DNA of 64,000 nucleotides from Escherichia coli (GTDB lineage Bacteria > Pseudomonadota > Gammaproteobacteria > Enterobacterales > Enterobacteriaceae), in assembly GCF_009931435.1 (NCBI RefSeq), contig NZ_CP043414.1. The stretch is one strand, 5' to 3'. Positions 12,875 to 60,276 of this stretch are shown here, piece by piece; position 1 is the stretch's first letter, and the number at the start of each line of letters is the position of its first letter. A program made the translations under genes and the position numbers. The notes beneath the pieces were generated by a model. It was not told the DNA's origin, did not search any database, and worked only from the letters and a program-made list of their open reading frames with translations.

Positions 12875-12990
12875 ACCAAACGACTCGGGGTGCCCTTCTG
12901 CGTGAAGGCTGAGAAATACCCGTATCACCTGATCTGGATAATGCCAGCGTAGGGAAGTCACAGACCACCAGGTCATTGCTTCTTCACGTT
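12875..12990 (+). promoter_or_regulatory. TPP riboswitch (thi box) in the thiM leader
   Basis: ggggtgcccttctgcgtgaaggctgagaaatacccgtatcacctgatctggataatgccagcgtagggaa immediately upstream of thiM; conserved THI-element core (ctgaga, cctgatctggataatgccagcg). Boundaries approximate. Confidence 0.9.
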
Positions 12991-29217: not shown

Positions 29218-29304
29218 AAAAAATAAGCCCGTGTAAGGGAGATTACACAGGCTAAGGAGGTGGTTCCTGGTACAGCTAGCATTTTATGGGTTATGTTTTT
29301 CAGC
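29218..29304 (-). ncRNA. cyaR: CyaR (RyeE) Hfq-dependent small RNA
   Basis: Minus-strand sequence GCUGAAAAACAUAACCCAUAAAAUGCUAGCUGUACCAGGAACCACCUCCUUAGCCUGUGUAAUCUCCCUUACACGGGCUUAUUUUUU matches the CyaR sequence as I recall it, including the terminator hairpin and U-tail. Confidence 0.85.
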
Positions 29305-29388
29305 GAAACGGATGATAACCTTAATAAATGCAGCTGTATGTGATCGGTTTCTAAGAATTTTCCATCCGGGAAAAATAATCGAAATTAA

Positions 29389-43389: not shown

Positions 43390-43531
43390 GAAACGGGAAA
43401 GCCCCTCCCGAGGAAGGGGCCTTAAATAAGGAAAGGGTCATGATGAAGCTACTCATCATCGTGGTGCTCTTAGTGATTAGCTACCCAGCATACTAAGACT
43501 ACCAGGGCGGGGGAAACCCCGCTCTACCCTC
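43390..43531 (-). ncRNA. sibB: Sib antisense RNA covering ibsB
   Basis: Minus-strand promoter: -35 TTGACA (revcomp of about 43562-43567), 17-nt spacer, -10 TACTTT (revcomp of about 43539-43544); terminator-like hairpin gcccctcc...ggaagggg near 43401-43420. Ends approximate. Confidence 0.6.
43440..43496 (+). CDS. ibsB: Type I toxin Ibs (18 aa, hydrophobic)
   Basis: ATGATGAAGCTACTC... encodes MMKLLIIVVLLVISYPAY, preceded by aaggaaaggg. A/B assignment by position (copy nearer mdtA), from memory. Confidence 0.8.
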   Translation: MMKLLIIVVLLVISYPAY

Positions 43532-43717
43532 ACTCCTGAAAGTATGCCTTCACGATAAGATTGTCAATCCGCAGGATTTGCCGTCTGCGATCCTGCCAGC
43601 AAATATTCTTTGCGAGTCGTTACGCAATAATCACAGAGGAAACTATTTTATTCACGCGTTAGCGATAGACTGCATTCAGGGCGAAAGGAGGTAAGCCGAT
43701 GATTTCAGCGGGACGCT

Positions 43718-43866
43718 GAAACGGGAAAGCCTCTCCCGGAGAAGAGGGCTTTTAATAAGGAAAGGGTTATGATGAAGCACGTCATCATACTGGTGATACT
43801 CTTAGTGATTAGCTTCCAGGCTTACTAAGAACACCAGGGGGAGGGGGAAACCTCTCCCTAACCCTC
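43718..43866 (-). ncRNA. sibA: Sib antisense RNA covering ibsA
   Basis: Minus-strand promoter: -35 TTGACA (revcomp of about 43897-43902), 17-nt spacer, -10 TAATTT (revcomp of about 43874-43879); hairpin gcctctcccggagaagagggc near 43730-43750. Ends approximate. Confidence 0.6.
43769..43828 (+). CDS. ibsA: Type I toxin Ibs (19 aa, hydrophobic)
   Basis: ATGATGAAGCACGTC... encodes MMKHVIILVILLVISFQAY; second copy of the repeat unit, nearer yegL. Confidence 0.8.
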   Translation: MMKHVIILVILLVISFQAY

Positions 43867-44048
43867 ACTCCTGAAATTATGTCACTCCGCACTTAGTGTC
43901 AATCGACGGCTCTCCGTTCTTGCGAGGCGAATAGCAAAATTTTCTGCGCCGCCGGGCCTAATTCTGAAAGTTTCTTCGTTTGCTCTTATTTCATTATTGC
44001 AGTCGGTATGATACCGGACCTCGATAATTCTCTAAGAAAGGATTTCTT

Positions 44049-56894: not shown

Positions 56895-58478
56895 TCACAC
56901 CTCGTACTCCAACTCGCCATCCTTATGCAGCGGAATAATCTGCACCTTCTGCACGCGATGGCTTTCCACCTGCAACGTTTTAAGCAAATAATCCCCCACC
57001 TGAACTTCTTCGCCAGGTTTTGGAATACGCTGTAAATATTCCATCAACAGCCCGGCAATGGTGTGATATTCACGTTTTTCATCCAGCGGCAGCGGCACAT
57101 ATTGCACCAGATCTTCCAGCGGCATATGACCATTCGCCGTCCAGGAACCGTCCGCATTCTTCTGAATATCATGGCGGGCGTCGATCTCTTCCACTTCGTT
57201 CGGTAAGTTACCGGCAATGGTTTCAGTGACGTCACTTAATGTCACAATCCCTTCCACCGAGCCAAACTCATCCACCACAAAAGCAAAGTGCGTGCGGGCA
57301 TTACGGAACTGCTCCAGGGCAGGTAACAACGGCAAGGTTTCCGGGAACACCAGCGGCTGGCGAATCAACACCCGCAGGTTGAGCGGTTCGCCACGCAGTG
57401 ACTGTTGTAGCAGGTCGATAACGTGAACAACACCGAGCAAATCTTCTGCGTCATCACCGTCGGTAACCACCAGCCGCGTATGCTGATTTCGCTCCAGCAA
57501 CTGGCGGATCTCGTCTTCCGGCGCGTTGAGATCGATATGCTCAATATCGTGGCGCGACGTCATAATGCTGCTGACAGTACGCTGGTTAAGATTAAGTACC
57601 CGCTCAATCATCCGCCGTTCCTGCGGATTAAAGATCTGCTGGTTACCATGATCCACCAGCATGGACGCGGTTTCGGCGTCCAGTTCCGCATCTTCTTTTT
57701 GCCCGCTAAGCAGGCGCATTACCGCTTCGGTAGTCCGCTGGCGTAGCGTCTGGTTAGCGGAAAGAAAACGTCGCCGGTTAAAGATAGCCAACTGATTGAG
57801 CGCCTCGATCATCACCGAGAAACCAATGGCAGCGTACAGGTAGCCTTTCGGAATGACGAAGCCGAAACCTTCTGCCACCAGGCTAAAGCCAATCATCAAC
57901 AGGAAGCTTAAGCAGAGAATAACGATGGTCGGGTGACTGTTAACAAATTGCGTTAACGGCTTGCTGGCCATCAACATCAGGCTGATAGCGATAACCACGG
58001 CGGCCATCATGACCAGTAAATGGTCGACCATCCCGACGGCGGTAATCACTGAGTCGAGTGAGAAGATGGCGTCCAGTACCACAATTTGTGTCACCACCCC
58101 CCAGAACTTCGCACCTTTGCGTTGTGTGGGATTATTGCTGTCTTTCCCTTCCAGCCGTTCGTTCAGCTCCATCGTGGCTTTGAACAACAGGAAGAAACCA
58201 CCAAACAGCATGATTAAGTCGCGGGCGCTAAAGGTAAACGAGCGGAAGCTGAACAGCGGTTGCGTCAGGGTGACCAGCCAGGAGATTGACGCCAGCAGTA
58301 ACAGGCGCATTAACATCGCCAGCAGCAGCCCGGTAACCCGTGCGCGGTCGCGCTGCTTCGGCGGTAGTTTTTCGGCGAGGATGGCAATAAAGACCAGGTT
58401 ATCAATGCCGAGGACCAGTTCGATCACAATCAGCGTGATTAACCCGGCCCAGATAGACGGATCGGCAATCCATTCCAT
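56895..58478 (-). CDS. yegH: TerC-family membrane protein with CBS and CorC/HlyC domains
   Basis: Internal ATG gives [34 protein letters not shown] (527 aa); track ORF has a 22-codon extension. Confidence 0.9.
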
Positions 58479-58946
58479 AGTAAGTACAAAACCTATTCGT
58501 TGTATGACAAATGTCACAATTCGATCATGGATAAATCGGGGCAAAAATGCAATGTTGCAGCACTATTTATCTCATATTATTTGAGGGTAATAACCTCACA
58601 TTATCCCTGAATTAAAAGTGGTAATAATAAAACATTATTTAAGAAATATCGCATGTGGAGGCGCAATATTAAATATTGTCAACCTAAAGAAACTCCTAAA
58701 AACCATATTGAATGACACTTAATATAATTCTTAAAAATAGCCAATTGCCGAATTGTTACCTTGCCTGCTATTCCGTTAGCTGTAACACTTCCTCCTGCAT
58801 TATTGGAGAGCCAATATTCAATTACCATAATGTCACCTTATATTCGGAAGTTAATTTCCGCAATAACCCTTTCTCATCAACGATTGTATGCAGAGAGGGT
58901 TTGAAAAATTAAGCTAAATCAGTGTATTGGTAGCTAAAAAGCCAGG

Positions 58947-58958
58947 GGCGGTAGCGTG
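58947..58958 (+). promoter_or_regulatory. ops (operon polarity suppressor) element in the wza 5' leader
   Basis: ggcggtagcgtg seen directly, about 180 nt upstream of the wza ATG; matches the RfaH-recruiting ops consensus GGCGGTAGnnTG. Confidence 0.7.
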
Positions 58959-59136
58959 TCTGGATGCCTGAAAGACCAGTCTGAATTATTCTGTCAATAG
59001 CCTGCGGATGAAATCAATTTTTTTAGGACTGATGCCAGTTAAATTTGTATTCAATTAACTGCAAGGTAAATGTGCATGGCGACATTGCTATTAATAGTGC
59101 ACAGGATAATTACTCTGCCAAAGTGATAAATAAACA

Positions 59137-60276
59137 ATGATGAAATCCAAAATGAAATTGATGCCATTATTGGTGTCAGTAACCTTGATAAGCGGTTGCA
59201 CAGTACTTCCGGGCAGCAATATGTCGACGATGGGCAAAGACGTCATCAAACAGCAGGACGCTGATTTCGATCTCGACAAAATGGTGAATGTTTATCCGTT
59301 GACCCCGCGCCTGATTGACCAATTACGTCCACGACCCAACGTAGCGCGCCCCAATATGACGCTGGAAAGCGAGATCGCGAATTACCAGTATCGCGTCGGG
59401 CCGGGGGACGTTCTTAATGTCACCGTCTGGGATCACCCGGAACTCACCACGCCAGCCGGTCAGTACCGCAGCTCCAGTGACACCGGCAACTGGGTACAGC
59501 CTGACGGCACCATGTTCTACCCGTATATCGGCAAGGTTCACGTAGTCGGGAAAACGCTCGCTGAAATCCGCAGTGATATTACCGGGCGCTTAGCGACGTA
59601 CATCGCTGACCCGCAGGTGGACGTTAATATCGCCGCCTTCCGCTCACAAAAGGCCTATATCTCAGGTCAGGTGAATAAATCCGGTCAACAGGCGATCACC
59701 AACGTACCACTGACTATTCTCGACGCCATCAACGCCGCAGGTGGCCTGACCGACACCGCTGACTGGCGCAACGTGGTGCTAACACACAATGGTCGTGAAG
59801 AACGCATTTCTTTGCAGGCGCTGATGCAAAACGGCGACCTCAATCAGAACCGACTGCTTTATCCCGGCGATATTCTCTACGTGCCGCGTAATGATGATCT
59901 GAAAGTATTTGTGATGGGTGAAGTGAAGAAACAGAGCACCCTGAAAATGGACTTTAGCGGCATGACCCTGACTGAAGCCCTGGGTAATGCTGAAGGCATC
60001 GACATGACCACCTCCAACGCCAGCGGCATCTTTGTCATTCGTCCGCTGAAAGGCGAGGGCGGGCGTAATGGCAAGATTGCCAATATCTACCAGCTGGATA
60101 TGTCCGATGCGACGTCGCTGGTGATGGCGACAGAATTCCGCCTGCAACCTTATGACGTGGTGTATGTCACCACCGCCCCGGTTTCCCGCTGGAACCGTCT
60201 GATCAATCAGTTGCTGCCAACTATTAGCGGTGTCCGTTACATGACGGATACAGCCAGCGACATTCATAACTGGTAA
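59137..60276 (+). CDS. wza: Outer-membrane polysaccharide export lipoprotein
   Basis: 379-aa [24 protein letters not shown] with lipobox; first gene of the colanic-acid cluster. Confidence 0.95.

Follow-up and report, generated by a model that had tools for sequence, protein, structure and literature searches.

The window analysed here, a 64,000-nt stretch of an Escherichia coli genome (NCBI RefSeq assembly GCF_009931435.1, contig NZ_CP043414.1), contains the divergent genes yegH, encoding a TerC-family membrane protein, and wza, the first gene of the colanic-acid operon. The interval from the yegH start codon on the minus strand to the wza ATG on the plus strand corresponds exactly to positions 58479-59136, a non-coding gap of 658 bp with a G+C content of 35.1%, against 50.8% for the whole window. 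Matching E. coli genomes, and MG1655, are annotated in RefSeq with an identical gene order and an identical 658-bp gap; the window strain is distinct from MG1655, differing by a few substitutions. The same gap was recovered from 4818 of 5426 complete E. coli genomes, mostly at 95-100% identity, and about 600 genomes had no match to it. The region is the already known control region of the colanic-acid (cps/wca) operon, placed back-to-back with yegH. Colanic acid forms the main slime of E. coli and its relatives under envelope stress, and the standard way to read out the Rcs stress pathway is with cpsB/wza fusions; assigning the bases of operator, promoter and RfaH site matters for reporter building or promoter replacement. 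One published 'wza promoter' construct comprises the ops-to-ATG fragment only, and lac-promoter replacements of the cps promoter were not recoverable in one published study.

The original prediction, made from the letters of the sequence, had treated the whole interval as an AT-rich wza leader of about 650 nt. The AT-richness was borne out, but the interval is not a single leader, because an RcsB-type operator and the sole conserved -10-like element sit inside it. It probably contains a yegH-proximal part, the Rcs operator, the cps promoter and a leader that would be about 400 nt long. The features of the locus are as follows.

56895-58478, minus strand: yegH, the divergent neighbour, whose start-codon ATG ends at 58478
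58479-59136, no strand assigned: yegH-wza divergent intergenic region
58499-58554, minus strand: conserved yegH-proximal blocks, including a CRP-like site
58640-58653, plus strand: best candidate RcsAB (RcsB-type) box, TAAGAAATATCGCA, from motif match and footprint
58677-58702, plus strand: near-invariant block TGTCAAC..AAA(C/A)TCCTAAAAA, 0.78 mean identity against 0.27 in the adjacent spacer
58718-58736, plus strand: the previously suggested 'RcsAB box', likely the cps -10 and start-site region, with TAATAT at 58720-58725 and TATAAT at 58723-58728
58759-58788, plus strand: early-leader blocks CCTTGCCTGC and TTAGCTG(T/C)AACA, a stretch with C exceeding G, 0.82-0.88 identity
58800-58915, plus strand: variable leader spacer, 0.30 identity, differing in length by about 40 nt between genera
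58920-58958, plus strand: JUMPstart element
58947-58958, plus strand: ops element GGCGGTAGCGTG, the RfaH loading site on the non-template strand
58985-59046, plus strand: post-ops blocks AATTATTCTGTCAATAGCC and TTTTTAGGACTGATGCCAGTTAAATTT (58985-59003 and 59019-59046), 0.85 identity
59100-59136, plus strand: near-invariant 37 nt before the wza ATG, the translation initiation region, 0.92 identity
59137-60276, plus strand: wza, with its ATG at 59137, followed by wzb, wzc and wcaA

The blocks at 58499-58554 probably belong to yegH, not to wza. The CRP-like site among them, TGTGACATTTGTCATA as read on the yegH strand (58503-58518), is situated 25-40 nt upstream of the yegH ATG, inside a conserved block, and has one mismatch to TGTGA-N6-TCACA; the count of CRP-like sites in the window was not above chance.

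The ops 12-mer, GGCGGTAGnnTG, was matched exactly on the wza-sense (plus) strand. It occurred once in the window, where 0.02 occurrences were expected by chance, with its start 190 nt and its end 178 nt from the wza ATG, and it formed the 3' part of a full-length JUMPstart element with the 39-bp JUMPstart consensus and its small hairpin (Rfam RF01707, matched over model positions 1-38 of 38 at 57.3 bits, where the gathering score is 35; E 4.1e-12). The JUMPstart sequence was reportedly described by Hobbs & Reeves 1994, and antitermination by RfaH at ops by Bailey et al. 1997. In a comparison set of 80 enterobacterial wza loci, including Escherichia, Citrobacter, Salmonella, Enterobacter, Lelliottia, Kosakonia, Phytobacter, Cedecea and Buttiauxella, GGCGGTAG was present upstream of wza in 75, and the distance from ops to the ATG was 189-191 nt in 51 of the 63 loci in which it was measurable. 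Five loci had no exact copy of the element; those flagged (L006, L036, L037, L040, L046, L057 and L073) include a contig that begins at wza, so that its upstream DNA lay outside the comparison (L057), a Citrobacter amalonaticus locus with unrelated sequence immediately before the wza ATG (L046), and a second, divergent wza locus of Kosakonia oryziphila (L073). Elsewhere, a one-mismatch ops-like string, GGCGGTAGTTTT, was seen in the antisense strand of yegH (58360-58371, plus strand) adjoining a terminator-like hairpin match at 58351-58365; both are probably chance.

Published data agree with this placement. Hustmyer et al. 2022 (PMC9765446) report the same ops for CFT073, where it lies on the non-template strand, -190 from wza. 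In that study, the RfaH ChIP signal in a delta-hns delta-stpA background began at the wza ops and extended through wcaL, RfaH occupancy at wza was detected only upon deletion of hns and stpA, and a sigma-70 peak was present upstream of wza in the double deletion, whereas H-NS covered and silenced the wza promoter in wild-type CFT073 (PMC9765446). On RfaH control of the operon the same paper cites Navasa 2014, and control by JUMPStart-RfaH and by RcsA/RcsB is stated in PMC9976346 and PMC11014345, citing Stout 1996 and Wehland & Bernhard 2000. The claims that an ops consensus lies about 180 nt upstream of wza and implies RfaH-dependent antitermination, together with the suggested comparison to JUMPStart elements, thus stand on the exact match on the non-template strand, the conserved spacing, the full-length RF01707 match and the published ChIP; this part is textbook knowledge.

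The RcsAB box required a different approach. Within 58479-59136, the 14-mer RcsAB consensus gave no match with up to three mismatches. The degenerate RcsB pattern TN(G/A)GAN4TC(T/C)NA, defined by Huesa et al. 2021 (PMC7913699), was not enriched at one mismatch, with 40 matches in the window against 56 expected, and its matches included both 58640-58653 and 58720-58733. Since the strict pattern had no match and the degenerate one showed no enrichment, motif matching cannot decide, and phylogenetic footprinting was used. The best candidate, TAAGAAATATCGCA, fits the degenerate pattern with one mismatch and all six upper-case positions (T1, A3, G4, T10, C11 and A14) of what is reportedly the RcsAB box, TaAGaatatTCctA, from which five lower-case positions differ. 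A box with at least six of the seven contact positions occurred at a fixed offset in 50 of 68 loci (49 distinct sequences), and was absent from that offset in about 18 more distant ones. Information content reached 1-2 bits per position inside the 15 bp that make up the box and fell to about 0-0.4 bits in both flanks, and the inner positions varied (AATA, TATT, TATA, ATTA, ACTA) while the contact positions persisted. In 47 of 48 loci 79-81 bp separated the box from the -10 block; the one exception had 78 bp. This footprint and geometry suggest that 58640-58653 is the RcsAB operator.

Several variants of this upstream region were observed. Atlantibacter carries a near-consensus TGAGGATATTCCTA shifted by an insertion. 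In a number of loci from Enterobacter, Lelliottia and Trabulsiella, the main box is preceded by another complete RcsB-type box, TGAGATTTCTCTTA or TGAGATTTATCTCA, which lies about 95 bp further upstream. At the equivalent position in E. coli (58561-58574) only the right half of this second box, ATTTATCTCA, is retained, and this half is conserved. In E. coli 14EC017 (NZ_CP024134.1), a 766-bp IS1 insert at 58573-58583 lies between yegH and the RcsB-type box, with an overlap of about 11 bp at the junctions. A laboratory mutant with IS1 at another place, between JUMPstart and the wza ORF, was published with an enhanced capsule phenotype (PMC8117528 supplement).

The string that the original prediction offered as a loose RcsAB-box resemblance, cttaatataattcttaa, maps to 58718-58734, about 10 nt away from the 58728-58745 assigned to it. 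The resemblance is real but not above chance by itself, as the pattern counts above indicate. The element was near-invariant in 64 of 76 ops-bearing enterobacterial loci, reading TAATAT(T/A)A(T/A)TC, or TCATAT(T/A)A(T/A)TC in five of them; in all 64, position 4 of the corresponding box (58720-58733) was T instead of the conserved G. Because of this T, the TAATAT/TATAAT content, and the fixed 79-81 bp to the better box upstream, 58718-58734 is most likely the -10 of the cps core promoter rather than an RcsAB box. A consensus promoter scan found no -35 match for the conserved -10 at 16-18 bp spacing and missed the block for that reason; a -10 without a -35 is what is expected of an activator-dependent promoter. 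Transcription would then start at about 58731-58736. The box would be centred about -85 to -90 from this start, ops would fall at about +213, and the leader would be about 400 nt long. With this start, ops would lie downstream within the transcribed leader, a position for which the RfaH ChIP signal at ops offers indirect support.

Beyond these elements, conservation was expressed as mean identity to E. coli across the enterobacterial wza loci. The conserved blocks reached 0.78-0.92, like codon positions 1 and 2 of wza, with third positions at 0.55 and the spacer at about 0.3; the 37 nt before the ATG equalled the first codon positions of wza. The block at 58677-58702 contains TCCTA (58694-58698) at about -39, which may represent a perfect RcsB half-site. 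Overall, the region consists of two rigid modules with a variable spacer between them: the spacing from box to -10 is fixed within about 1 bp, that from ops to the ATG is constant in most loci, and the distance from the -10 to ops ranges from 212 to 250 nt. Inspection of the invariant blocks by eye gave no match to sigma-E-, sigma-54- or IHF-like elements, so those readings were dropped, and neither the scan nor inspection gave an acceptable hexamer pair for an internal promoter between ops and the ATG. Full-text literature searches returned no work on the conserved blocks, the box sequences, or the wza leader or UTR.

At the downstream end, the 20 nt before the wza ATG paired with the anti-Shine-Dalgarno sequence at -1.6 kcal/mol, against -6 to -7 kcal/mol for wzc, wcaA and asmA; the wza start is without a Shine-Dalgarno sequence. 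Burmann et al. 2012 reportedly proposed that RfaH recruits ribosomes to genes of this kind, a proposal that wza would fit.

Taken together, this is the known colanic-acid regulatory region, probably organised as an RcsAB-activated sigma-70 promoter followed by a leader of about 400 nt with RfaH loading at JUMPstart/ops. In this model, phosphorylated RcsB together with RcsA would bind the box at 58640-58653 and activate a sigma-70 promoter that has a good -10 (58720-58728) and no -35. RNA polymerase starting at the predicted site would pause at JUMPstart/ops, where RfaH would load onto the exposed non-template strand, travel with the polymerase, exclude NusG/Rho and override H-NS-StpA filaments, so that the operon of roughly 20 genes would be transcribed to its end. 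RfaH probably also aids the recruitment of ribosomes to wza. The sequence elements of the promoter region, their conservation and their spacing are observed here, and RfaH loading at the wza ops, H-NS coverage of the promoter (PMC9765446) and Rcs dependence were published by others; we infer where transcription starts, which sequence is the RcsAB box and that RfaH helps to recruit ribosomes. The model does not account for the invariant blocks at 58677-58702, 58759-58788, 58985-59046 and 59100-59136.

One variation of the model concerns what RfaH chiefly counteracts. Rather than countering H-NS, ops might mainly suppress Rho-dependent attenuation in the leader and the operon, with Rho loading on the early leader. 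In this stretch C is abundant and G scarce (C/G ratio 1.5-2.0 over 58700-58840, negative GC skew), a composition that would suit Rho loading; its pyrimidine-rich block is conserved, no intrinsic terminator or terminator-like hairpin was found in the leader, and with an SD-less wza ribosomes would give the leader and early wza little protection. However, the stretch with C exceeding G sits upstream of ops, and the published data for the wza locus emphasise H-NS-StpA. We hold this emphasis on Rho to be possible but rather unlikely, and it is a refinement of the RcsAB-RfaH model rather than an alternative to it.

The segment between ops and the ATG (58959-59136) may form a functional module of its own, possibly an as yet undescribed platform on which ribosomes load in an RfaH-coupled way or on which an sRNA or protein gates wza translation. 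This reading follows from the segment's length, fixed at 189-191 nt in most loci, its three or four near-invariant blocks, the lack of conserved folding and the SD-less start, and we put it forward as a doubtful proposal. On the promoter side, the invariant blocks at 58677-58702 and 58759-58788 could likewise serve regulators that have so far not been linked to cps. This set of deeply conserved leader blocks is the only possibly new content of the region, and a modest lead.

An improbable alternative to the promoter assignment takes 58720-58733 (TAATATAATTCTTA) as the true RcsAB operator and moves the promoter downstream, for example to TGGAGA-16-CATAAT at 58804-58831, the sole match of the promoter scan. 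The site reads TAATATTATTCTTA in most genera, three mismatches from TAAGAATATTCCTA, and its right half, TTCTTA, is a good RcsB half-site within a near-invariant element. Against this stand the T at box position 4 in every locus that carries the element and the invariant TAATAT inside the proposed operator. The downstream promoter match, moreover, falls in the least conserved part of the region (0.30 identity, with indels), and the distance from 58720-58733 to downstream features varies by about 40 nt, whereas that to the upstream box varies by no more than about 1 bp. We therefore retain 58718-58734 as the likely -10 and 58640-58653 as the candidate operator.

A structured cis-regulatory RNA besides JUMPstart, such as a riboswitch, thermosensor or attenuator, is very improbable. 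The leader would be long enough at about 400 nt, several of its blocks are as conserved as coding positions, and colanic acid is produced at low temperature, all of which speaks for such an RNA. Nevertheless, an Rfam search of the region at E<=10 returned nothing besides JUMPstart, and RNAalifold on 41 diverse sequences (<93% identical) predicted 10 pairs, confined to the JUMPstart stem and the ops hairpin, with one-sided changes only and no compensatory ones. The post-ops blocks at 58985-59046 showed no conserved pairing in that analysis, and the E. coli leader folded no better than its shuffles (MFE z -0.31). The possibility that an inverted repeat at 58755-58786 forms an early-leader hairpin was rejected, since the changes between the blocks were not compensatory. 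The additional regulatory RNA structure for which the size of the leader had been said to leave room is not supported by these results. Other Rfam matches above the gathering score in the window were known E. coli features: a TPP riboswitch (12876-12972, plus strand), CyaR/RyeE (29221-29306, minus strand) and two SIB antitoxin RNAs (43425-43567 and 43754-43902, minus strand).

Hardly credible is the reading in which the blocks within 58679-58828 are conserved as coding sequence for a 49-aa minus-strand hypothetical protein that PGAP annotates across the cps promoter and early leader (WP_162829205.1): although the protein is annotated in many RefSeq E. coli genomes and one minus-strand frame reads G(R/G)IVAAN.IAGK..FK.NIK with a constant linker length in many genera, no start codon is conserved, the frame breaks between the blocks in seven loci (L019, L022, L024, L025, L026, L029 and L051), the N-terminal third falls in the indel-rich spacer, and conservation is equal at all three codon positions, unlike in wza with its drop at third positions. 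We regard this ORF as a by-product of conserved regulatory DNA. Two plus-strand ORFs (58712-58912 and 58761-58904) were rejected as both span the indel-rich spacer, the former additionally beginning upstream of the predicted transcription start.

In comparison with known systems, the region shows no essential difference from the E. coli K-12 cps/wza promoter region (Stout 1996): the locus is the same, its length in MG1655 is the same, and the window carries the full JUMPstart as the known system does. The candidate box at 58640-58653 shares with the RcsAB box (Wehland & Bernhard 2000) the six conserved positions and is itself conserved in position, and departs from it at the five lower-case positions. 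With other RfaH-controlled leaders (rfb/wzx, waaQ, kps and hly), the wza leader has in common an ops on the non-template strand, an AT-rich, H-NS-bound leader and a long envelope operon downstream. The distance from ops to the first gene is 190 nt for wza, compared with 40-71 nt for kpsM, rfaQ and wzx and 634 nt for hlyC, and, unlike in those other leaders, the interval upstream of wza is nearly fixed in length across genera and filled by invariant blocks.
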